Assembly: GCF_035084215.1 (NCBI RefSeq)
Contig: NC_090327.1
Location: 40,486,001 to 40,550,000, forward strand
From: Heptranchias perlo
Lineage: Eukaryota
Length of the DNA stretch: 64,000 nucleotides
Reading direction: 5' to 3'
The notes under the pieces are model-generated. The model worked only from the letters and a program-made list of their open reading frames with translations, was not told the origin of the DNA and searched no databases. Below are positions 26,672 to 59,728 of this stretch, piece after piece (within the stretch, counting starts at the first letter, position 1; the number at the start of each line of letters is the position of its first letter). Made by a program: the position numbers and the translations under genes.

Positions 26672-28276
26672 GTGCTACTGGATGGACTAAAAATTGGTAA
26701 AGAGGAGGTACTAGAAAGATTGACTGTACTTAAAGTAGATAAGACACCTGGTCCGGATGGGATGCATCCTAGGTTGCTGAGGGAAGTAAGGGTGGAAATT
26801 GCAGAGGTGCTGGCCATAATCTTCCAATCCTCCATAGATATGGGGGTGATGCCAGAGGGCTGGAGAATTGCAAATGTTACACCCTTGTTCAAAAAATGAT
26901 GTAAGGATAAACCCGGCAGCTACAGGCCAGTCAATTTAACCTCGGTGATGGGGAAGCTTTTAGAAATGATAATCTGGGACACAATTAATAGTCACTTGGA
27001 TGAGTGTAGATTAATAAAGGAAAGCCAGCACAGATTTGTTAAAGGCAAATCGTGTTTAACTAACTTGATAGAGTTTTTTGATGAGGTAACAGAGAGGGTT
27101 GATGAGGGCAATGTGGTTGATGTTGTTTATATGGACTTTCAAAAGGCTGTTGATAAAGTGCCACATAATAGGCTTGTCAGCAAAATTGAAGCCCATGGAA
27201 TAAAAGGGGCAGTGACAGCGTGGATACAAAATTGGCTACGTGACATGAATCAGAGTAGTGGTGAACGGTTGTTTTTTGAACTGGAGGAAGGTGTTCCTCA
27301 GAAGTTGGTACTAGGACCACTGTCTTTCTTGATATATATTAAAGACTTGGACTTGGGTGTACAGGGCACAATTTCAAAATTTGCAGATGACACAAAACTT
27401 GGAAGTGTAGTAAAAAGTGAGGAGGATAGTGATAGACTTCAAGAGGACATAGACAGGTTGGTAGCGGACACAAGGCAGATGAAATGTAATGCAGAGTGTG
27501 AAGCGATACATTTTGGTAGGAAGAATGAGGGGAGGCAAAATAAACTAAATGGTACAATTCTAAAGGAGGTGCAGGAATAAAGATACCTGGGGGTATATGT
27601 GCACAAATCTTTGAAGGTGGTAGGACAAATTGAGAAAGTGGTTAAAAAAGCATGTAGGATCCTGGGCTTTATAAATAGAGGTATAGAGTACAAAAGCAAG
27701 GAGGTTATGTTGAAACTTTATAAAACACTGGTTTGGCCACAGCTGGAATTTTGTGTCCAATTCTTTAGGAAGGATGTGAAGGCCTCAGAGAGGGTGCAGA
27801 AATGATTTACTAGAATGGTGCCAGGGGAGAGGGACTTCAGTTACGTGGATAGAGTGAAGAAGTTGGAGTTGTTCTCCTTAGACCAGAGAAGGTTAAGAGG
27901 AGATTAGATAGAAGTGTTCAAAATCATGAAGGATTTAGATAAAGTAAATAAAAAGAAACTTCCTATTGGCAGAACGGTCGAGAACCAGAGGACACAGATT
28001 GGTGATTGGCAAAAGAACCAAAGGCAACATGAGGAAAAACTTTTTTATGCAGCGAGTGGTTATGATCTGGAATGCGCTGCTTGAAAGGGTAGTGGACGCC
28101 AATTCAATCGTTGCTTTCAAAAAGGAATTGGATAAATATTTGAAGGGAAAAAATTTGCAGGGCAACGGGGAAAGTGCAGAGGAATGGGACCAACTGGATT
28201 GCTCTTACAAAGAGCTGGCACGGGCTCATTGGGCCGAGTGGCCGCCTTCTGTGCTGTAACCATTTTATGATTCTAT
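26672..28276 (+). mobile_element. 5'-truncated CR1 LINE (RT to 3' UTR)
   Basis: DKTPGPDGMHPRLLRE, YMDFQKAVDKVPH, SKFADDTKLG, RKNFFMQRVVMIWNAL; ATTCTAT-type tail. Confidence 0.92.
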
Positions 28277-28402
28277 AAGGGGCCTATATAGTGTTGCCAA
28301 TTCTTGTTGGATGTATTCCTGGAGGTTCAATCACATGACACTTGATCACTGACATTATCTGGGCTCACACATGAAGAATGGCAACTCCAGGTGGCTCTCT
28401 GT

Positions 28403-28812
28403 GGAACCATACCTCAGTGAATGTCAGTGCCAGGCAAACCATACTCCAGTGAGAGTCAGTGCCAGGGGAACTGTTACCCAGCAAGAGTTGGTGCCAGTGG
28501 AACTGTACCACAGCGAGAGTCAGCACCTGGGGAACCAGAACATAGCTAGAGTTAGTGCCAGGGTAACTGTACCTCAGTGAAAGTTAGTGGCAGAGCAATG
28601 GTACCACAATGAGAGTTGGTGCCAGGTAAACCGTACCCCAGCAAGAGTCAGTGCCTGCAGTACCATTCAACAGTAAGAGTTAGCACCAGGGTAACTGTAC
28701 CCCAGTGAGAGTCAGCAGCAGAGGAACTGTACCATAGTGAGATTTGATGCCAGGAGAAATGTACCCCAGTGAGAGTCAGCATCAGGGCAACAGTACCCCA
28801 CTGAGAGTCAAT
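28403..28812. repeat. Degenerate 32-bp minisatellite, ~13 copies (consensus ~GGAACTGTACCCCAGTGAGAGTCAGTGCCAGG)
   Basis: Head-to-tail units without unique spacers. The flanks resemble the 3' part of the SINE at 51385-51780. Confidence 0.85.
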
Positions 28813-28962
28813 GTTTTCAGGTGGTGAGGGGAAAAAATTGAACAAAAAAACCCAAAAATGTTCTTGGGTATGTGGATTATTATACTGAGAGGAGGAATTC
28901 CCCTTTATATACTGGGCTATTTACATATATGCTGTCCCTTTAAGAGGTGTTGTATTGCTGAC

Positions 28963-29298
28963 CTTTTTGACGTGTGGTCCAAAGCATTCATATTTTTTAG
29001 GAGCTGAAAGTTGATGATTCGGATTCTTTTTCCCAACACGTGGATTGAGTAGGTCCGTTTAAATTTCGGGTGCAAGACCAGCCCCAGGAATCCCCTCTGT
29101 CCTCTGAGCCATGAGGAGATCAGCACTGCCTTGCTGAGGTTCAGGGATGGCCTGTTGATGCGCAAGCCATTGGGCAGGTAGAGCCACATCAGCCTCACCT
29201 GCTCGGCGATGAAGTAGCGGTATGTTCCGTTGTTGGTGCACAGGATGGCCACAGCATTCCAACTTCCTGCAGAAAAGTTGGAGACAGCCCGAGAAGTC
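28963..29298 (-). pseudogene. Frameshifted exon fragment of an HHIP-like (HHIPL1/HHIPL2-type) gene
   Basis: DFSGCLQL/LQEV/NAVAILCTNNGTYRYFIAEQVRLMWLYLPNG..RPSLNLSKAVLISSW.GQRGFLGLVLHPKFK..RIRIINF..MNALDHTSKR aligns by eye to the HHIPL motif [42 protein letters not shown]..PFLN...VLTSPW.GDERGFLG.AFHP.F..RIRISEF..N.VDH.SER. Ends at a donor-like AAG|GTCAGC. Confidence 0.8.
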
Positions 29299-30116
29299 AA
29301 AGTGTGCATTCGTGAAGCGCGAATGTGAAGTAGTTTTCTCCCAGGTTGCTAGCAACAGTGACCGGGAGATCAATCTTTCTTTCTGGGAGACTCTCAGACA
29401 ATCTGGGAGGATTGGCATTGCTAGACCTATGTGAATTAAGTTTGGGACGTCTCAATATAGTTCCTCATGGACATAGCAAACAACACAAAATTAATTTGGC
29501 ATTATCTGGCAATCTCATTCAGGGAAGCCACAGGATAAGTGATGTCACACTAGTGCAGTAGGGGTGCTTTTCTGAAGTGGAGGTTGAGGTGCATTGTTGG
29601 GGCAGAGTAAAAGGACCTTTATTTTGCACCTGGCTGCACTATACCTGAACTGTACACTGGGTGCCTGAAATGGGAAGGGTACCATCCTCCACATTAAGAG
29701 GCTTGAGCACAAATCTGTGGAGAAAAAATGATGATAAGGTTTGCTGGGTTTTATGATTATTGAGGATGATGCTTTTTAGCTTCTTTTCGAGATAAGTTGT
29801 TTTAATTTCTTCTTTTCTGCCTTGAAGATAGTTACTCAATTGGAGTGCAGTTCCACAGGTGTCATCAGCTCTACAGAACCTTTGTAAAGTGGTCCTCCTT
29901 CATGCGTAAGTCTGAATAGTGAGAGCTCACTGTGGGAGGAGGGTGATCATTGCCAAATAGAATCCTCTCATCCACACACTTTACAGAAGGGGTCACTTGG
30001 TAATGATCAAGGACAGAAATCATGGCTCTGTGATCCCGTGACGCTGAGGCAAATTGTAGCATCCCAACTATGCCTTGACAGAGATCAACAAGGACTGAGA
30101 TTGGACCTGGGACTTC

Positions 30117-31410
30117 CTAATAAAGAATAGTCAGCACGGATTTCAAAAGGGAAATCATGCGTGACCAACCTTATTGAATTCTTTAAAGAAGTAACAGAAA
30201 GGGTAGACAAGGATAATGTAGTAGATGTAATATATTTGGATTTTCAAAAGGTCTTCGATAAAGCACTGCATTGTAAACTCATGACTAAGGTCAGAGCATG
30301 TGGAATCAGGACAAATAGCAGAATGGATAGCAAGCTGGCTACAAAACAGAAAACAAAGAATGGGGGCTAAGGGTATCTACTCGGACTGGCAAAAGAAGGG
30401 AAGTGGTGTTCCACAGGGATCGGTGCTGGGACCACTATTGTTCACAATTTACATTAATGATTTGGATTCTGGAATGGGAACTACAATTTCAAAATTTGCA
30501 GATGATACCAAATTGGATTTTGTAGTTAATACAAATAAAGAATGCATCAAATTGCAAAAAGACATTAATAAACTTGCAGAATGGGTGTATAATTGGCAAA
30601 TGAATTTCAATATAGATAAGTGTGAGGTGGTGCATTTTGGTAGGAAGAATAAGGAAGCCACATACTGCTTGGATAATAAGCATCTAAACCAGATAGAGGA
30701 GCAAAGAGATCTAGGGGTACAGATACACAAATCACTAAAAGTAGCGACGCAGGTTATTAAGGCTATAAAAAAGGCAAATCATGCACTATGGTTCATTTCA
30801 AGAGGGATAGAATTGAAAAGCAAAGAAGTTACTTTACACATGAATAGAACTCAGATTAGACCATACTTGAAGTATTTTGCACAGTTCTGGTCTCCATATT
30901 ATAGAAAGGATATAGAGGCATTGGAGGGGGTGCAAAAAAGATTCACAAGGATGATACCAGGACTGAGAAGAAATCCTCATGTGGAAGGGCTGAATAGGCT
31001 AGGACTCTATTCTCTAGATTGAGAAGGCTGAAGGGTGACCTGATAGGGGCCTTTAAGATAATGAAAGGGTTCGATAGGGTAGATGTAGAGAAAATGTTTC
31101 CACTTGTGGAGGAGTCCAAAACTAAAGATCATAAATATAAGATGGTCACTAATAAATCCAATAGGAAAATCAGGAGAAACTTCTTTAGCCAAGGAGTGAT
31201 AAGAATGTGGAATGCGCTACCACAAGGAGGCAAATAGCATAGATGCATTTAAGGGGAAGCTAGATAAGCACATGATGAAGAAAGGAATAGAAGGGTATCC
31301 TGAAAGGGTTAGATGAAGTAGGGAGGGAGGAGGCTTGCATGGAGCATAAATGCTGGCACAGACTAGTTGGGCCGAATGGCCTGTTTCTGTGCTGTGGTTC
31401 TAATGTAACT
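30117..31410 (+). mobile_element. 5'-truncated CR1 LINE
   Basis: SGVPQGSVLGPLLFTIYINDLD..SKFADDTKL, QFWSPYYRKDI, and a CR1 3' UTR. Confidence 0.92.
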
Positions 31411-36344: not shown

Positions 36345-37373
36345 TTTTTTTGTTATTCGTTCATGGGATGTGGGCGTCGTAGGCGAGGCCAACATTTATT
36401 GCCCATCCCTAATTGCCCTTGAGAAGGTGGTGGTGAGCCGTCTCCTTGAACCGTTGCAGTCCGTGTGGTGAAGGTATTCTCCCACAGTGCTGTTAGGTAG
36501 GGAGTTCCATGATTTTAATCCAGCGATGATGAAGGAACGGCGATATATTTCCAAGTCGGGATGGTGTGTGACTTGGAGGGGAACGTGCAGGTGGTGTTGT
36601 TCCCATGTGCCTGCTGCCCTTGTCCTTCTAGGAGATAGAGGTCGCGGGTTTGGGAGGTGCTGTTGAAGAAGCCTTGGTGAGTTGCTGCAGTGCATCCTGT
36701 GGATGGTACACACTGCAGCCACAGTGCGCCGGTGGTGAAGGGAATGAATGTTTAGGGTGGTGGATGGGGTGCCAATCAAGCGGGCTGCTTTATCTTGGAT
36801 GGTGTCGAGCTTCTTGAGTGTTGTTGGACCTGCACTCATCCAGGCAAGTGGAGAGTATTCCATCACACGCCTGACTTGTGCCTTGTAGATGGTGGAAAGG
36901 CTTTGGGGAGTCAGGAGGTGAGTCACTCGCCGCAGAATACCCAGCCTCTGACCTGTTCTTGTAGCCACAGTATTTATATGGCTGGTCCGGTTAAGTTTCT
37001 GGTCAATGGTGACCCCCAGGATGTTGATGGTGGGGGATTCGACGATGGTAATGCCGTTGAATGTCAAGGGGAGGTGGTTAGACTCTCTCTTGTTGGAGAT
37101 GGTCATTGCCTGGCACTTGTCTGGATGTTATTTACCACTTATCAGCCCAATCCTGGATGTTGTCCAGGTCTTGCTGGATGCGGGCACGGACTGCTTCATT
37201 ATCTGAGGGGTTGCGAATGGAACTGAACACTGTGCAGTCGTCAGCGAACATCCCCATTTCTGACCCTATGATGGAGGGAAGGTCATTGATGAAGCAGCTG
37301 AAGATGGCTGGGTCTCGGACACTGCCCTGAGGAACTCCTGGGGCTGAGATGATTGGCCTCCAACAACCACTAC
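36345..37373 (-). mobile_element. 5'-truncated copy of the tRNA-headed LINE family, nested in the L2
   Basis: 236-aa ORF nearly identical to the C-terminus of the 887-aa ORF at 56791-59454; GMFADDCTVF motif. Confidence 0.92.
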
Positions 37374-37545
37374 CGAACTCGCACCAACTCCCATTCACCT
37401 ATCACCCCTGTGCTCGCTGACCTACATTGGCTCCTGGTCTGGGAATGCCTCGATTTTAAAATTCTCATCCTTGTTTTCAAATCCCTCCATGGCCTCACCC
37501 CTCCCTATCTCTGTAACCTCATCCAACCCTACAAATCTCTGATAT

Positions 37546-40215: not shown

Positions 40216-40967
40216 GTTCCAGACAAATGCCAGGCAATGACCATCTCCAACAAGAGAGAATCTAACCACCTCCCCTTGACATTCAACGGCATTACCATCG
40301 CTGAATCCTCCACCATCAACATCCTGGGGGTCACCGTTGACCAGAAACTTAACTGGACCAGCCACATAAATACTGTGGCTACAAGAGCAGGTCAGAGGCT
40401 GGGTATTCTGCGGCGAGTGACTCACCTCCTAATTCCCCAAAGCCTTTCCACCATCTACAAGGCACAAGTCAGGCGTGTGATGGAATACTCTCCACTTGCC
40501 TGGATGAGTGCGGCTCCAACAACACTCAAGAAGCTCAACACCATCCAGGACAAAGCAGCCCGCTTGATTGGCACCTCATCCACCACCCTAAACATTCACT
40601 CCCTTCACCACTGGCACACAGTGGTTGCAATGTGTACCATCTACAGGATGCACTGCAGCAACTTGCCAAGGCTTCTTCGACAGCACCTCCCAAACCCACG
40701 ACCTCTACCACCTAGATGGACAAGGGCAGCAGGCACATGGGAACAACACCACCTGCACGTTCCCCTCCAAGTCACACACCATCCTGACTTGGAAATATAT
40801 ATCGTCGCTGGGTCAAAATCCTGGAACCCCACTGTGGGAGAATCTTCACCATAGGGACTGCAGTGGTTCAAGGCGGCTCACTACCATCTTCTCAAGGCAA
40901 TTAGGGATGGGCAATAAATGCTGGCCTTGCCAGTGATGCCCACATCCCATGAACAAATAAAAAAAAA
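40216..40967 (+). mobile_element. 5'-truncated copy of the tRNA-headed LINE family
   Basis: 205-aa ORF matching the C-terminus of the 887-aa ORF; same 3' UTR and poly(A). Confidence 0.92.
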
Positions 40968-43450: not shown

Positions 43451-45508
43451 GGGCCTGATTTTACCAGGCCTGCGGGTTTCCGGCGGGTTTGGTTTCGGGA
43501 GCGTGGTCAACGCGCCCGGTGAAATTAGTGGGTTGCCCGCGCGATCGTGGCAGGCAACACACTAATGGGATTCAATTACCTGCTCCTCCGGGCTCAGCGC
43601 TGCTGGTCTGCGCGTCGGGCGGGCTGCGCATGCGCAGTACGATCTGTCAGCTGGAGGCTCTCTAGTTAAAGGGGCAGTCCTCCACTGACAGATGCAGCAA
43701 CCAATGGAACAAATTACAGCATGGAGCAGCCCAGGGGGAAGGCTGCTCCCAGTTTAATGATGCCTCACCCCAGGTATCATCAGATGGGGTGAGGAGGAGG
43801 GGGAGAACAGAGATCTTCCACCCGGCGGGCGGGAGGAAGCGGCCCGCCTCTGCCACCAAGAAGGACTGGCTCGAGGTGGCAGAGGGGGTCACCTGCACCA
43901 CCAACATATCGCCCACCTGCATACAGTGCAGGAGGCGCTCCAATGACCTCAGTAGGTCAGCCACAGTGAGAACACGTAGTCTTTCCCCTACACTCCGTCT
44001 GCCACAACACTGCCCCCACCCCACATCTCCTTCGGCACCGCCAACACTACTCTGTCACATCACCCCTCATACCCACTCAAACCCCATCCTCATCTTACCT
44101 CCACCTACTCACCTCGCCAGTACTCACCCCGCCACGAACACGCAACCCAATCCTCATACAATCTCATGGCTCTATCCCATACGCACCCTCTCGTGCATCT
44201 CCCTCACGGCCAGCCTCACTCAACCTGCCACCACCTGTGCTGCAGCCACAGGGCATGCATCGCATATGTGCAGTAGGCAGCGTACGGCAAACGTGTCGTG
44301 AGCATGAAGGGGATGCACAAGGGTGTCTGAGGGTTTGCCATGGGTGTTACCTATATTGAATTTCGGAGCAACAAACATCATACATTATATTGGCACCACC
44401 ACTGCCATGTCTCCCCGAATCCTGTCTGTTGTGTCCAATAATGCCCGCTCCTGGGTATCACTATGAGGAGCCACCACTGATGCCACCCATTGTGTTACTG
44501 CAGAGTAGGTGCAGGTGTATCTGCAGGGCTCTTCCACGCAGACGACTGAGAGACATCGGCGGTGTACCCGGCTGAACCCTGGAAGGATGCGGAGGAGAAG
44601 TTGTGGAGGGCAGTGGTGACTTTGGCAGCGACAGGTAAGCAGATGGTGCTGGGGCCAGCCAGGAGCAGCTCGGCATGAAAGAGGCTGCAGATGTCCACGA
44701 CTACATGTCGAGTGAATCTGCGCCTCCGTGTGCACTGCAGCTCGGAGAGGTCCGGGGAGCTGCGCCTTGGTCTGTGGACCCTGTGCGGAGGGTAGTGCCC
44801 TCTGCGACGCGTCTCTCTCTGCGGTTGCCCTCCCACCTGCTGTGCAGGTGGGTGTGCCACAGGACCGTGTTGGGGGGCTCCAATCCTCATACAATCCTCA
44901 TACGTGGACTGCGAGGCTGCTGGGGCTGGTCATGCTGTTCGTCCTCCGAGGATGTCAACGCACCACCCATCTGGCAGGTGTTGGTCTAAGGGGTTGTGCA
45001 GGGTAGGTAGGTGGTTCCTCGCACTGGGGCTGCGGTTTCATGTCGGTCTGTCCTCTGGCTTGGCGGGGGGTGGTGGAGGGCAGGGGTTGCCCTATGTGAC
45101 GCGGTGGCCTCCTGCGTGGGTGAGGGCTCTCCCACCCGCTGTGGAGTGCACCTTGGCAGCTGCCACAGGCTGCTGGCTGGAACACGACCGGTTGAAGGGA
45201 GACTGTTTCCCCCAGTGTGTGAAACTCACTGCCTTGAAGCTAAAATCCCACACTTCCTGTTTTGACAGCTGCTTCAGCTCATTTAATGACCTCAACAAGC
45301 AAGGTAAGTACTCTCAAGTGGAACCCCGCTGGCTTTAATTGCCTGCGGGATTCCCACCAGCGGGGCCTGTGCACGCAGCCCCGCACGTCAGCGCGGCACC
45401 CGGAAGTGGCCGGGATCTCGGCGCAATCCGGTCACGTGACTGGATATCGGGATTTTCGGGGCCCCCCCGCTGGAAACCTGCAGGAAACCCGACGCTAAAA
45501 TCGAGCCC
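43451..45508. mobile_element. Internally deleted PIF/Harbinger DNA transposon with convergent Myb/SANT-like (+) and transposase (-) gene remnants
   Basis: TIRs GGGCCTGATTTTA and GGGCTCGATTTTA; 3-bp TSD CAT (43448-43450, 45509-45511). Myb-like exon from ATG 43721 to donor 43966 (KKDWLEVAEGV..CIQCRRRSNDL). Transposase N-terminus at ~44500-44890 (RRRFTRHVVVDICSL..LPVAAKVTTALHNFSSASFQ). Confidence 0.9.
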
Positions 45509-46971: not shown

Positions 46972-48406
46972 AATAGGAACATAGGAACATGAGTAGGTCA
47001 TTCAGCCCCTCGAGCCTGTTCCGTCTTTCAATGAGATCATGGTTGATCTGTATCCTAAATCCATTTACCTGCTTTGACTCCATATACCTCAATATCCTTG
47101 GCTAGCAAAAATCTGTCGATCTCAGATTTAAAATGATTAATTGAGCTAGCATCTACTCCTTTTTTGTGGGGAGTGTTCCACAATTCTACCACCCTTTGTG
47201 TGAAGAAGTGTTTCCTAACTTCTCTCCCGAATGACTTGGCTTTGATTTTAAGGATGTGTCTCCTTGTCCTAGACTCCCCCACCAGCAGAAAAAGTTTCTC
47301 CCTATCTACCCCATCAATTCCTTTCAAAAACCTAAAAACATCAATCAAATCACCCCTTAACTTCCTATATTCCAGGGAATACAGCCTAGTTTATGTAATT
47401 TCGCCTCATAATTTAACCCTTGGAGCTCTGGTAACATTCTGGTGAATCTGCACTGCACTCCTTCCAAGGCCAATATATCCTTTCTGAGGTGTGGTGCCCA
47501 GAATTGTACACAGTACTCCAGATGTGGTCTAACCAGGACTTTGTATGGCTGTAGCAAAACATCCTTTCCTTTTATATTCTAGCCCTCTAGTTATAAAGGC
47601 TAACACTCCATTAGCCTTTTTGATTATTTTTTGTATCTGACCACTACATTTTAGTGATTTGTGTACATGGACCCCCAAATCTCTTTGGCCCTCCACTGTT
47701 CCTAGCCTTTCACCATTTATAAGTACTTGGATCATAGAATCATAGAATGGTTGCAGCACAGAAGGAGACCATTCGGCCCATCGAGCTCGTACCGGCTCTT
47801 TGTAAGAGCAATCCTGTTAGTCCCATTCCTCTGCTCTTTCCCCGTAGCCCTGCAAATTTTTTCCCTTTATGTATTTATCTAATTTCTTTTTGAAAGCCAT
47901 GATTGAATCTGCTTCCACCACCCTTTCAGGCAGCGCATTCCAGATCATAACTACTCACTGTGTAAAAAGGTTTTTTCTCAAGTTGTCTTTGGTTCTTTTG
48001 CCAATCACCTTAAATCTTTGTCCTCTGGTTCTCGACCCTTCCACCATGGGAACAGTTTCTCTTTATTTACTTTACCTAAACCATTCATGATTTTGAACAC
48101 TTCTATCAAATCTCCTCTTAACCTTCTCTGCACTAAGGAGAACAACCTCAACTTCTCCAGTCTATCCAGGTACTGAAGTCCTTCATCCCTGGAACCATTC
48201 TAGTAAATCTTTTCTACACCCTCTCTAAGGCCTGCACATCCTTCTTAAAGTGTGGTGCCCAGAATTGGACACAATACTCCAGTTGTGGCCGAACCAGTGT
48301 TTTATAAAGCTTCAACATAACTTCCTTGCTTTTGTACTCTATGCCTCTATTTATAAAGTCCAGGATCCCATATGTTTTTTTAACCGCTTTCTCAACCTGT
48401 CCTGCC
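46972..48406 (-). mobile_element. Two adjacent 5'-truncated CR1 copies (46972-47730 and 47732-48406)
   Basis: Each has LVRPHLEYCVQFWAPH or LVRPQLEYCVQFWAPH and its own 3' UTR and tail. Confidence 0.9.
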
Positions 48407-48510
48407 ACGGTTTCCCATGCCCCCTATCTATTGCAGGGCAAAAGGGAGCCCACCCAATTATCCATCCATTTAACTTAATGGACACACAATTAAATTCACT
48501 CCATACAAGT

Positions 48511-49258
48511 ACCAGCAATGACCATCTCCAATATGAGAGGATCTTGTCACCTCCCCTTGACATTTAATGGCATTACCATTGCCGAGTCCCCCACCATCAA
48601 CATCCTGGGAGTCACCATTGACTGGAAACTCAACTGGACCAGCCACATAAATGCTGTGGTACTAGAGGCTGGGTATTTTGTGGCACATGGCTCACCTCCA
48701 GACTCCCCACCACTTACAAGGCACAAGTCAAGAATGTGATGGTATACTCCCAACTTTGCCTGGATGGGTGCAGCTGCAACAACACTCAAGAAGCTTGACA
48801 CCACTCAGGACAAAGTAGTCCACTTGATCGGCAACTTATCCACTCGCTTAAACATTTACCCCCTCCACTCCTGGCATACCATGGCTGCAGTGTATACAAT
48901 CTACAAGTTGCTCTGCATCAACTTGCCAAGGCTGCTTCAGCTTCTTCTACCTCCCAAACTTGCGACTTCCACCACCTAGAAGGACAAGGACAGTGGGCAA
49001 ATGGGAACACCATCACCTCCAAATTCCCTTCCAAGTTGCACACCATTCTGATTTGGACAATCAAAAGAGATTTGTTCAATGTTGCTGGGTCAAAATCCTG
49101 TAACTCCCTACCTAACAGCACTGTGGGAGCCCCTTCACCACACGGGCTGCAGCGGTTCAAGAAGAAGGATCACCACCGCCTTCTCAGGGCAACTAAGGAT
49201 AGGCAATAAATGCCGGCCTTGCCACTGACACCCACATCCTAATAATAAATTTTAAAAA
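48511..49258 (+). mobile_element. Older, diverged 3' copy of the tRNA-headed LINE family
   Basis: HLPLTFNGITIAESPTINILGVTID, TTLKKLDTTQDK and the same 3' UTR. Confidence 0.88.
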
Positions 49259-51384
49259 GTGCCATCACTGGCAGGAGATGTAATTACAGTGTAATAAGTT
49301 TACATGGACAATTTACATTATAAATAGGGACATGGGAATTCTTAATGGAAATATAAAAATATGGACAGAATCTATGACTAAAATGGGGACTGAGTTACAT
49401 CTTTGGGCCCTGGTCCAATTATCCCCTGGCCTCTAACTCTGCTTCACATGAAGACTACACTTACCATTGACTCCCTGTATGCAACTCTGTAGGAGATTGA
49501 CTAGTCACTTATATAAATGAAGACAAAAGAGATCCCAACACTGATCTTTGGGGCACACTACTACTCACAAACCAACTTACACACATTTGCCCCTACTCTG
49601 TTATCTGGTCACCTCTCTACTCGTCCCTTTTAATGTCATGCGCCTTAATTTTCATTAAAATCTTTTACAAGGCATTTTATTAAATACCTTCTGAAAATGA
49701 AACTACTAAGGATGAAAAGTTGAAAAGTGTAAAAGATTAGTAAGTGCCAAGCTTGAATTTTAAAAGCATGAGGAGGAAGGAAAGAAGGATTTAAGGAGTT
49801 CTACAGTTGTAAGGTCCTAGGAAAGAACAAATCAGAAATGGAGTCTGTGCTAACTGCTACAAAGATTTCTCAGGTTTGTATGGCTCATTACCACATCAGT
49901 AGTACATTTACACACTATGCCATCAGGGGATGCTAAAGCCACTTTTTATCAAAATGGGTTTGCATCAGCACAATCTGTAATGTATAACTGACTTGTAACA
50001 CGCTCAGATATGCATGGGCCTCTGGCATAAGCCAATTTTTTTCTGACTTTCTCACTTAATGAGAATCATTATAAGATGCAATATCATCACTATTTCATGA
50101 TTCACAAGGATAGCATAATAATTTAAGGTCAAATAATTTGCATTGATGATTTTAACCCCTTGAGCACGATGAGAGTGGGCCGTGCAGGGGATAAAATATT
50201 ATCAGCATGACACTCACCAGATCCACAATGCACATGTGCCGTGCTCTATTTTAACAGTTGCGTTTCGGGCCGCATGTGAGGCGCTCACCCTAGGCAGATG
50301 AGAGCCTCATTAAGACTCAGAAGTTGGGCTCTATTGACGTCAATCATTAGAGGGGAAGCAGGCCCAGAAGAGGTGTGAGAAGGTCAGTTAATTAAACTTT
50401 TTAAAGTTTCCTTGTGGGTCTGGAGAAACAGGAATGTTCCTCTGGGCCCCACAAAGAAAGGGTCTCCCTTTCCCCAGGCGTCCCCTCTCCCTGATAATGA
50501 TCTGTGTTGGCCCCTCCTCACCCCCTGATCTACTTACCTGACTGTCGGGGACCGATCCTGTGGGTCCCCTCCTGCTGCACTCGCATGACTCCTGTCTGCT
50601 AGCCTCACGTTATTGATGCTGGGTCAGGGCGAGAGTCGGGACTGTTGTATTTAAGTGAGACTTTTGAGTTAAAATAGCCCAAGCCTCATTCAGCAAGCTT
50701 GACCCTCGCCCTGCTGGTCCCATGCTTGTCGCTCGCCCCCAAGTAAAAGTCTTGGCTAATAACTCTGACATTTTATATTACTTTCTATAAAGCTGCATTT
50801 CTATCAAGTCCGCCAATTCTGATGGAATAAGGATCAACAGGAAACAGATTAAAAATGCAAAAAAATAGGACAGATTAAGAATAAAGAATGCAGGTGACAC
50901 AGCCTGTTAATACGCCATAGAGTGGTTGAGTTTTTCCAAATGGCAAGCTACCGACCTCAGCTGGAGCTGTCTGGGGAGGCCGGATGGAAACTAGGAAGGG
51001 AAAGTCGATATACATTTACATCCATTCCCTACTAGTTGATATGACATTACTGGGTAATGTTGCCTTGTCCAAACCTTGGTTGGTGGTAAGAGTATTGTTT
51101 GGGGGATTTTACTGAGGAAGATACTTGAAAAAAAGGCAAACGTTACTGGAACCTTGGCAATGCTGGATTTCTGTATCAGGTTAAGACTGTGCAAACATTT
51201 GGCACAAATTCATTTTTGAGTCAGTGCCAAAGAATACATCATGTACATTGCCTTCATTATTAGTGTGATCTGGATACGTTTTGACTGAATTAACACGTGT
51301 ACATGTGTGTGTGTGAATGCAAGTTAATGTCGATCTAGGAGATTCAAATTCATTCAAGTTCTCTGTTCTATATGGAACATTAAC

Positions 51385-56790: not shown

Positions 56791-59728
56791 CTAATTGCCC
56801 TCGAGAAGGTGGTGGTGAGCCGCCTTCTTGAATCGCTGCAGTCCGTGTGGTGACGGTTCTCCCACAGTGCTGTTAGGAAGGGAGTTCCAGGATTTTGACC
56901 CAGCGACGATGAAGGAACGGCGATATATTTCCAAGTCGGGATGGTGTGTGACTTGGAGGGGAACGTGCAGGTGGTGTTGTTCCCATGCGCCTGCTGCTCT
57001 TGTCCTTCTAGGTGGTAGAGGTCGCGGGTTTGGGAGGTGCTGTCGAAGAAGCCTTGGCGAGTTGCTGCAGTGCATCCTGTGGATGGTGCACACTGCAGCC
57101 ACAGTGCGCCGGTGGTGAAGGGAGTGAATGTTTAGGGTGGTGGATGGGGTGCCAATCAAGCTGGCTGCTTTATCTTGGATGGTGTCGAGCTTCTTGAGTG
57201 TTGTTGGAGCTGCACTCATCCAGGCAAGTGGAGAGTATTCCATCATACTCCTGACTTGTGCCTTGTAGATGGTGGAAAGGCTTTGGGGAGTCAGGAGGTG
57301 AGTCACTCGCCGCAGAATACCCAGCCTCTGACCTGCTCTCGTAGCCACAGTATTTATATGGCTGGTCCAGTTCAGTTTCTGGTCAATGGTGACCCCCAGG
57401 ATGTTGATGGTGGGGGATTCGGCGATGGTAATGCCGTTGAATGTCAAGGGGAGGTGGTTAGACTCTCTCTTGTTGGAGATGGTCATTGCCTGGCACTTAT
57501 CTGGCGCGAATGTTACTTGCCACTTATGAGCCCAAGCCTGGATGTTGTCCAGGTCTTGCTGCATGCGGGCTCGGACTGCTTCATTATCTGAGGGGTTGCG
57601 AATGGAACTGAACACTGTGCAGTCATCAGCGAACATCCCCATTTCTGACCTTATGATGGAGGGAAGGTCATTGATGAAGCAGCTGAAGATGGTTGGGCCT
57701 AGGACACTGCCCTGAGGAACTCCTGCAGCAATGCCCTGGGGCTGAGATGATTGGCCTCCAACAACCACTACCATCTTCCTTTGTGCTAGGTATGACTCCA
57801 GCCACTGGAGAGTTTTCCCCCTGATTCCCATGGACTTCAATTTTACTAGGGCTCCTTGGTGCCACACTCGGTCAAATGCTGCCTTGATGTCAAGGGCAGT
57901 CACTCTCACCTCACCTCTGGAATTCAGCTCTTTTGTCCATGTTTGGACCAAGGCTGTAATGAGGTCTGGAGCCGAGTGGTCCTGGCGGAACCCAAACTGA
58001 GCATCGGTGAGCAGGTTATTGGTGAGTAAGTGCCGCTTGATAGCACTGTCGACAACACCTTCCATCACTTTGCTGATGATTGAGAGTAGACTGATGGGGC
58101 AGTAATTGGCCGGATTGGATTTGTCCTGCTTTTTGTGGACAGGACATACCTGGGCAATTTTCCACATTGTCGGGTAGATGCCAGTGTTGTAGCTGTACTG
58201 GAACAGCTTGGCTAGAGGCGCAGCTAGTTCTGGAGCACAAGTCTTCAGCACCACAGCTGGGATGTTGTCGGGGCCCATAGCCTTTGCTGTATCCAGTGCA
58301 CTGAGCCGTTTCTTGATATCACATGGAGTGAATCGAATTGGCCGAAGACTGGCTTCCGTGATGGTGGGGATATCGGGAGGAGGCTGAGATGGATCATCCA
58401 CTCGGCACTTCTGGCTGAAGATGGTTGCAAACGCTTCAGCCTTGTCCTTTGCACTCACGTGCTGGACTCCGCCATCATTGAGAATGGGGATGTTTGCAGA
58501 GCCTCCTCCTCCCGTTAGTTGTTTAATTGTCCACCACCATTCACGACTGGATGTGGCAGGACTGCAGAGCTTTGATCTGATCCGTTGGTTGTGGAATCGC
58601 TTAGCTCTGTCTATAGCATGTTGCTTCCGCTGTTTAGCATGCATGTAGTCCTGAGTTGTAGCTTCACCAGGTTGGCACCTCATTTTTAGGTACGCCTGGT
58701 GCTGCTCCTGGCATGCTCTTCTACACTCCTCATTGAACCAGGGTTGATCCCCTGGCTTGTTGGTAATGGTAGAGTGAGGAATATGCCGGGCCATGAGGTT
58801 ACAGATTGTGCTGGAATACAATTCTGCTTCTGCTGATGGCCCACAGCGCCTCATGGATGCCCAGTTTTGAGCTGCTCGATCTGTTCTGAATCTATCCCAT
58901 TTAGCACGGTGGTAGTGCCACACAACACGTTGGATGGTGTCCTCAGTGCGAAGACGGGACTTCGTCTCCACGAGGACTGTGTGGTGGTCACTCCTACCAA
59001 TACTGTCATGGACAGATGTATCTGCGACAGGTAGATTGGTGAGGACGAGGTCAAGTAAGTTTTTCCCTCGTGTTGGTTCGCTCACCACCTGCCGCAGGCC
59101 CAGTCTAGCAGCTATGTCCTTCAGGACTCGGCCAGCTCGGTCAGTAGTGGTGCTACCGAGCCACTCTTGGTGATGGACATTGAAGTCCCCCACCCAGAGT
59201 ACATTCTGTGCCCTTGCTACCCTCAGTGCTTCCTCCAAGTGGTGCTCAACATGGAGGAGGACTGATTCATCAGCTGAGGGAGGACGGTAGGTGGTAATCA
59301 GCAGGAGGTTTCCTTGCCCATGTTTGACCTGATGCCATGAGATTTCATGGGGTCCAGAGTCAATGTTGAGGACTCCCAGGGCCACTCCCTCCTGACTGTA
59401 TATCACTTGTACCGCCACCTCTGGTGGGTCTGTCCTGCCGGTGGGACAGGACATACCCAGGGATGGTGATGGAAGAGTCTGGGACGTTGGCTGAAAGATA
59501 TGATTCTGTGAGTATGGCTATGTCAGGCTGTTGCTTGACTAGTCTGTGGGACAGCTCTCCCAATTTTGGCACAAGTCCCCAGATGTTAGTAAGGAGGACC
59601 TTGCAGGGTCGACTGGGTTTGGTGTTTTTTTGCCGTTGTCGTGTCCGGTGCCTCGTGGTCCGTCCGGTTTTATTCTTATTCTGACTTTTCGTAGCGAGAT
59701 TTTACAACTGAGTGGCTTGCTGGGCCAT
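56791..59728 (-). pseudogene. Endonuclease/reverse transcriptase ORF of the LINE (~978 aa reconstructed; one in-frame TAA at 59702-59704 and one +1 frameshift at ~59408)
   Basis: ATG at 59728 is in frame with the 70-aa ORF 59360-59572. Removing one A in GGT ACA A GTG joins that ORF to the 887-aa ORF. Confidence 0.8.

Follow-up and report, generated by a model that had tools for sequence, protein, structure and literature searches.

A hAT-like terminal-inverted-repeat element holding captured HHIP-like exon and intron DNA, probably one of several decayed copies in a shark genome

The window, the whole stretch of 64,000 nucleotides analysed here, is vertebrate DNA with many LINE remnants. It contains a two-exon GDF5/6/7-type gene with its last coding exon at 22127–23056; the best chain for this exon in a PDB search was GDF5, and we take GDF6 to be a presumptive name for the gene. 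The element described below lies on the downstream side of this exon, 5.2 kb from the stop at 23056. An earlier, sequence-only reading had placed it about 6 kb downstream of GDF6, which was right as to the side, overstated the distance, and named more narrowly a neighbour that we describe as GDF5/6/7-type. A LINE 3' end, 86% like 47734–48408, occupies 27617–28276. Contigs (327 and 314) put the stop of this LINE at 28276, leaving four letters to the left target-site duplication, which places the element at the LINE tail.

Elsewhere in the window, a minus-strand open frame at 56791–59517 encodes 908 residues with endonuclease and reverse transcriptase domains, and copies 78–94% similar to its 3' part lie at 36355–37374, 40219–40958, and 48487–49261; judged by their similarity, these are best taken as a fairly young LINE family. 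On the plus strand, a 211-residue open frame at 43666–44301 had no Pfam match; it belongs to a region of higher GC content in which several frames overlap, and it presumably resembles a decayed Harbinger-type element. An Rfam search over 28000–30200 gave two matches only, both far below the cut-offs and outside the element.

The element has its termini at 28289 and 29423 and, with its flanking duplication, comprises the following parts, each given with its strand and the evidence for it.

28281–28288, plus strand: left copy of the target-site duplication, GGCCTATA (6/8 match to the right copy).
28289–28338, plus strand: 50-nt left end of a high-copy TIR element, with the TIR at 28289–28301 (contig starts; divergence of X5 contigs at 28339).
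28339–28402, minus strand: interior of 64 nt, either the end of the captured stretch or filler (between the divergence point at 28339 and the array start).
28403–28810, plus strand: 32-bp minisatellite of 12–13 decayed units in the captured intron-side DNA (TRF, units in register).
28811–28892, plus strand: tail that follows the array and closes with an A-rich run (sequence; no Rfam match).
28893–28962, minus strand: captured intron start, with the GT donor at 28962–28961 (read-through compared with a catshark genomic ORF; junction spanned by other contigs).
28963–29298, minus strand: 3' part of an HHIP-like (HHIPL) coding exon, beta-propeller/GSDH region, pseudogenised (tblastn, profile, trees).
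29299–29333, minus strand: 35 nt of weakly exon-like sequence separating the recognisable exon from the right end (frameshift-aware alignment).
29334–29423, minus strand: 90-nt right end of that TIR element, with the TIR at 29411–29423 (contig letters at 29355 and 29380, links, loose ends).
29424–29431, plus strand: right copy of the target-site duplication, GACCTATG (6/8 match to the left copy).

To look beyond the window, we used contigs from four public runs (X1, X3, X5, and X6), matched to it at 80% likeness. The runs come from one sample, which is perhaps the source of the window assembly; the listing covers 15 joints from a total of 139 and 32 pieces from about 29,600. Over their first 13 letters the two ends of the element differ only at positions 4–6, which leaves 10 matches, and the flanking 8-mers are identical at six positions. 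When duplication lengths from 2 to 12 were tried (11 lengths), more than three matches were obtained at length 8 only. The chance of at least 6/8 matches was 0.0054 from local composition and 0.0054 in 200,000 random window pairs, a figure that applies to length 8 alone among the 11 lengths tried.

The left terminus was marked by 266 (X1) and 275 (X3) contigs that start matching at 28289, with a further start at 28293 (175 and 184 contigs), and the flanks of contigs starting at the terminus were unrelated to one another (agreement 0.32–0.35). The consensus of loose ends from other copies at this end was TAGG, and 12 X5 contigs departed from the window sequence at 28339 into a different, shared interior. 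At the right end, 76–80 contigs had another letter at 29355 and 43–45 at 29380, and loose ends were found at 29361–29362 and 29417. A single contig joined 28327 to 29334 in each of X1, X3, and X6, three of the four runs. The contig starts, the departure at 28339, and the presence of both ends in one contig identify 28289–28338 and 29334–29423 as the two ends of a single abundant element, which here lacks its usual interior. The imperfect TIRs and the 8-bp near-duplication of the sequence-only reading were thereby borne out, and the case it had named against itself, ends from separate insertions, was not found.

An 8-bp duplication and short TIRs are typical of hAT elements. Both features are present here (6/8 at this one locus and 10/13), and on these two features the element may be called hAT-like; its terminal letters presumably recall the Blackjack hAT group. 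We found no transposase sequence inside the element, no further copies of its ends or interior inside the window (best outside match E 0.06), and 0 matches in a metagenome scan for the terminal motif.

Tblastn matched the minus-strand segment to catshark P0123 at E 2e-29 with 54% identity over 29258–28950, and a 16-protein profile run against the window found it at E 1e-31. A second frame lengthened the match to about 29298, giving approximately 336 nt up to the GT at 28962, and the frameshift-aware alignment reached 29325 weakly with one of the three proteins tried (P0023). The fragment showed 49% identity to Xenopus P0002 and 55–56% to catshark P0122 and P0123 (107 columns); Pfam alone gave no match. 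It represents about 110 of the 862 residues of the catshark protein and begins mid-exon, the catshark read-through ORF P0122 having about 90 more residues upstream. The piece is damaged by a frame break near 29260–29275, the loss of seven codons within 29028–29054, and the loss of one codon near 28998. Neither tblastn searches with two proteins nor the 16-protein profile found another HHIPL exon in the 64 kb; with one partial exon, a frame break, and deletions, a complete multi-exon HHIPL frame is absent. These results agree with the first description of a frameshifted minus-strand HHIPL segment that starts mid-exon, ends at a GT donor, and has no second exon beside it, and further exons outside the TIRs, which would have spoken against capture, were not encountered within the window. 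This copy appears to encode nothing, and there is no sign of function or of an effect on the neighbouring GDF gene.

The HHIPL match ends at a conserved exon end whose motif was present in 210 of the 260 proteins compared. After this motif, spliced proteins continue with residues of the [IVT][IL]LE type, and genomic read-through ORFs run into unrelated residues or a stop. For example, the S. torazame read-through ORF ends SEGQRL, and a spliced S. canicula protein from the same cluster continues VILEVV. The window reads SAIQHL after the GT, identical to the catshark SEGQRL at 3 of 6 residues, a level reached by 48 of 6869 window GT sites (0.7%). A tail starting with S occurred in 1 of 210, the catshark genomic ORF P0122, and the window tail likewise starts with S. 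The junction at the GT donor was also spanned by other contigs (records 4, 5, and 11). Because the match ends at the exon end and the continuation resembles the catshark intron, the intron start appears to have been taken along, which indicates capture from DNA. Sequence comparison thus supports capture, at the DNA level, of an HHIPL exon piece and the start of its intron between the ends of one TIR element, as had been proposed.

On the intron side, most of the captured DNA is a repeat array. TRF reported a period of 32, 12.1 copies, and 66% matches, and the 32-bp unit was very abundant elsewhere in the genome, including tandem arrays (many unit–unit joints in contigs). The first 132–135 nt of the array were matched by two contigs, one at 91% and the other at 83%, and the 83% contig also held 55 letters from 28893 on, so that the array and the intron start are joined in at least one other sequence, a parent or a sibling. 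The tail at 28811–28892 is presumably what had been called a SINE remnant, and we assume that the minisatellite may derive from the tail of a shark SINE. For 28403–28892 the candidate would be a SINE of the SacSINE1/Deu type, a class marked by a tRNA-derived head, a Deu domain, and an L2-like tail. The approximately 600 nt of intron-like DNA with a SINE remnant that had been claimed therefore held up at its start, which is intron-like (3/6 to catshark); the bulk is the array at 28403–28810, which had been overlooked.

The closest proteins to the fragment were the catshark HHIP-like 1 proteins XP_038641984.1 (Scyliorhinus canicula) and GCB85721.1 (S. torazame), and the fragment and two catshark rows grouped together in two trees (90/85 and 95/92); judged by these nearest relatives, the host would be a shark. 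The fragment formed a long branch (0.84–1.23, against 0–0.08 for the catsharks). In the AU test, an HHIPL2-type placement was rejected (p-AU 0.014) and an amniote-type HHIPL1 placement was not (0.051). HHIP itself was rejected as the donor, with HHIP chains matching at E 0.001 only compared with E 2e-29 for the HHIP-like P0123; the suggested hedgehog-interacting-protein-like origin thus stands for the HHIPL family and falls for HHIP itself.

The catshark proteins carry the NCBI label HHIP-like 1, yet they fell outside the clade of mammal and crocodile HHIPL1 rows. The same position was observed for the "HHIP-like protein 1" of shark, amphibian, coelacanth, and many fish (P0123, P0002, and P0023, set against P0127, P0131, and P0101); the mammal and crocodile clade also contains a second set of unnamed rows. 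In this tree of 110 columns, the pattern possibly reflects a third HHIPL paralog under the same "HHIP-like protein 1" label.

Many contigs carried a letter other than that of the window within the exon, with 21 (X1) and 23 (X3) at 29189, 19 and 22 at 29183, and 12 and 19 at 29073; on the intron side, at 28954, there were 9 and 11. Summed depth at 29189 was about 20 times that of the window's own contig, a measure that gives no copy number. At 11 listed exon positions the majority letters touch 10 codons and give the catshark residue in eight, which shows that these contigs are true homologues and that the window letters are private changes. Among the matches listed, six long, diverged, exon-covering pieces differed from the window by 13–22%, and no HHIPL piece other than the window's own reached 90% identity to the window.

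At 28954, the window's own contigs broke in X1 and X3 (records 3, 6, 10, and 12), at either a heterozygous site or a stretch close to sibling copies. In X5 and X6, which are RNA by guess only, HHIPL-like pieces were 83–86% alike over 29069–29235, one of them with small gaps. Going by these differences they would be sibling or parent sequences other than the window copy, and they are silent on expression.

Between HPxF and xIRI, the window encodes a loop of 9 residues, against 15–21 in every one of the 214 other pattern-matched proteins, which makes the short form derived; none of the best 10 of 70 representatives had a 9-residue loop. Contig X1-4 (28918–29087, 3 gap letters) and the identical pair X1-5 and X3-11 (28924–29098, 8 gap letters, net 0) spanned the loop without the 21 extra letters, as did X3-13 (28999–29188, 2 gap letters), with a short side of 29 letters only. 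Contigs that share the deletion are not the parent gene and point to an already shortened ancestor in common with the window copy, and a derived deletion common to two or three contigs indicates that the piece was multiplied after capture. The deletion-sharing contigs diverged by 13–19%, far more than alleles differ in the epaulette shark (diversity 0.002; PMC10587355). Three further pieces (X1-7, X1-8, and X3-16) break off within the part of the loop that the window copy has lost; they may represent the parent, paralogs, or copies in which the deletion is absent. The count that we regard as firm, judged from these alignments, would be three to four related copies, with two contigs clear and the third narrow. 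From contig numbers, in which the parent, paralogs, and alleles are counted as well, we estimate 10–20 copies. Applying the pedigree rate of 7e-10 per generation in a shark (PMC10587355) to divergences of 13–22% gave implausibly large ages, so no date is given.

No sibling HHIPL piece joined to a TIR end was seen among the 15 joints and 32 pieces listed, and no empty-site joint among the rows listed. Two contigs that extend beyond the window match, X1-5 by 159 letters past 28924 and X1-1 by 694 letters past 28403, had no match there among those listed. Searches for translated siblings in proteins matched 1 of 38 longer candidates and 1 of 3 candidates of similar length, the latter being the catshark ORF; the 9-residue loop occurred in the window only among 215 matched proteins; and none of 101 matches in a metagenome scan for the sibling pattern was confirmed.

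The chief alternative is that a resident TIR element was filled in place, as a single copy and without transposition, from one of several HHIPL pseudo-fragments whose copies arose by some other means, be it duplication, segmental or tandem, or a different mobile element. Gap-filling is the usual origin of animal Pack-TIRs, with an unloaded element at the orthologous site in 91 of 97 primate cases (PMC8277862), and siblings are tied to TIR ends in no listed row. However, it requires a second, unrelated amplification of the exon–intron piece with the same deletion. Donors in that survey are, moreover, mostly near (56.9% within 15 kb), whereas the 64 kb contain no further HHIPL sequence, and the median loss of 4.6% of the element compares with replacement of nearly the whole interior here (50 and 90 nt remain). 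We consider gap-filling unlikely.

Segmental duplication of the whole region including the element, with siblings that are not products of transposition, seems improbable to us, since no long diverged piece of the right flank was present among those listed, against six inside the element. It was suggested by a summed depth of 36–42 in the unique right flank (29425–29475) compared with 13–15 for the window contig, which implies some other sequence there at 80% likeness, although summed depth is no copy number. We give even less weight to a resident HHIPL unitary pseudogene in which two separate TIR insertions bracketed one exon by chance. TIR ends are abundant in the genome, and the exon and intron start stand in genomic arrangement, but the ends are inward-pointing complementary halves of one element with a 6/8 duplication, the exon is cut mid-way at the element end, no further exon lies in the window, and the siblings have a derived deletion in common. 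That the match stops at the exon end, lacks the residues of the next exon, and continues like the catshark intron leaves hardly any room for a fragment of a processed (retro) pseudogene trapped between the TIR ends, for which LINE remnants on both flanks, and nothing else, could be cited.

The reading we prefer, at a rough probability of two in three, is an old multicopy hAT-like Pack-TIR that captured HHIPL DNA, was moved and multiplied by transposase acting in trans, and has since decayed. Its history would begin with a short, abundant, non-autonomous hAT-like cut-and-paste element, one copy of which lost its own interior. About 1 kb would have been taken from a shark HHIP-like gene, reaching from the 3' part of a coding exon through its splice donor and a few hundred bases into the intron; most likely, a break within the element was repaired with a template switch to the HHIPL gene. 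As both ends were kept, transposase from elsewhere could have moved and multiplied the loaded element. An early loaded copy would then have lost seven codons, and the window copy and at least two to three others, as the shared deletion shows, appear to descend from it. One copy presumably inserted just behind the 3' end of the LINE, on the downstream side of the GDF5/6/7-type exon and 5.2 kb from it, with an 8-bp duplication, and later decay of this copy would account for the TIR mismatches, the frame break, and the private substitutions.

Comparisons with animal elements refer to the survey of Tan et al. 2021 (PMC8277862), which counts 370 Pack-TIRs across 100 animal genomes, with hAT as the commonest carrier (208), at a search cut-off of 90% identity to the parent. 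Multicopy Pack-TIRs number four cases only, in frog and alligator, and the multicopy share is 1.4% of animal Pack-TIRs against 36% of rice Pack-MULEs. In the species table as available, the sole cartilaginous fish found is the elephant shark, with 0 Pack-TIRs. The view that such capture is seldom reported in vertebrates consequently needs to be divided: single-copy animal Pack-TIRs are numerous, with 370 in that survey, and the multicopy form is rare. In the present element, an interior of 995 nt lies between ends of 50 and 90 nt, within the 100–5000 bp between both termini used to define Pack-TIRs there; the interior is DNA-level and no retrocopy, with an exon end followed by catshark-like intron read-through; and several interior copies are indicated by the deletion shared at 13–19% divergence and by up to 21–23 contigs over the exon.

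Like the multicopy animal Pack-TIRs, the element holds host-gene DNA, with the intron kept, between the ends of a non-autonomous TIR element with a target-site duplication. It differs from frog Pack-hAT-N8_XT, which carries 291 bp of CAPSL 5' UTR at three places in the genome (PMC8277862), in that its cargo is a coding exon, donor, and intron, and the contig count suggests more than the three copies of the frog. Its copies are 13–22% apart and fall under the 90% identity cut-off of that survey. With plant Pack-MULEs it shares a non-autonomous TIR element, a gene fragment, and amplification after capture, whereas Pack-MULEs have long TIRs and a 9–10 bp duplication instead of short TIRs and an 8-bp duplication. 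Non-autonomous MITE-like hAT elements are similar in their TIRs of about 12–13 nt, 8-bp duplication, asymmetric subterminal regions, and hundreds of end copies; unlike in ordinary ones, the interior here is host DNA, with the same exon end and a similar intron start as catshark HHIP-like protein 1. A literature search, with most subscription papers, Dfam, and Repbase outside it, found no description of HHIPL in shark or of this element. On the comparisons that were run, the best reading is a rare but known kind of element, a multicopy Pack-hAT-like one. We suggest more tentatively, at slightly less than even odds, a Pack-hAT family of about 10–20 dispersed copies with an HHIPL coding-exon piece and donor, the first from sharks and old enough to span shark species.

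That TIR elements of animals capture gene fragments is established, but almost every case on record is a single copy that arose in situ (PMC8277862). If the reading of a dispersed family is true, an old amplified family with a coding exon and donor would be a vertebrate parallel to the amplification of plant Pack-MULEs, and also a larger multicopy Pack-TIR than the animal cases compared here and the first from sharks. Old multicopy Pack-TIRs would then be undercounted, with identity-filtered surveys missing such families. The shared seven-codon deletion offers a marker for ordering the copies, and insertions common to several species would serve as phylogenetic markers. For annotation, such copies can pass as false extra HHIPL genes. 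For shark genomes more broadly, the finding would mean that exons were spread by cut-and-paste elements in a vertebrate lineage that evolves slowly.
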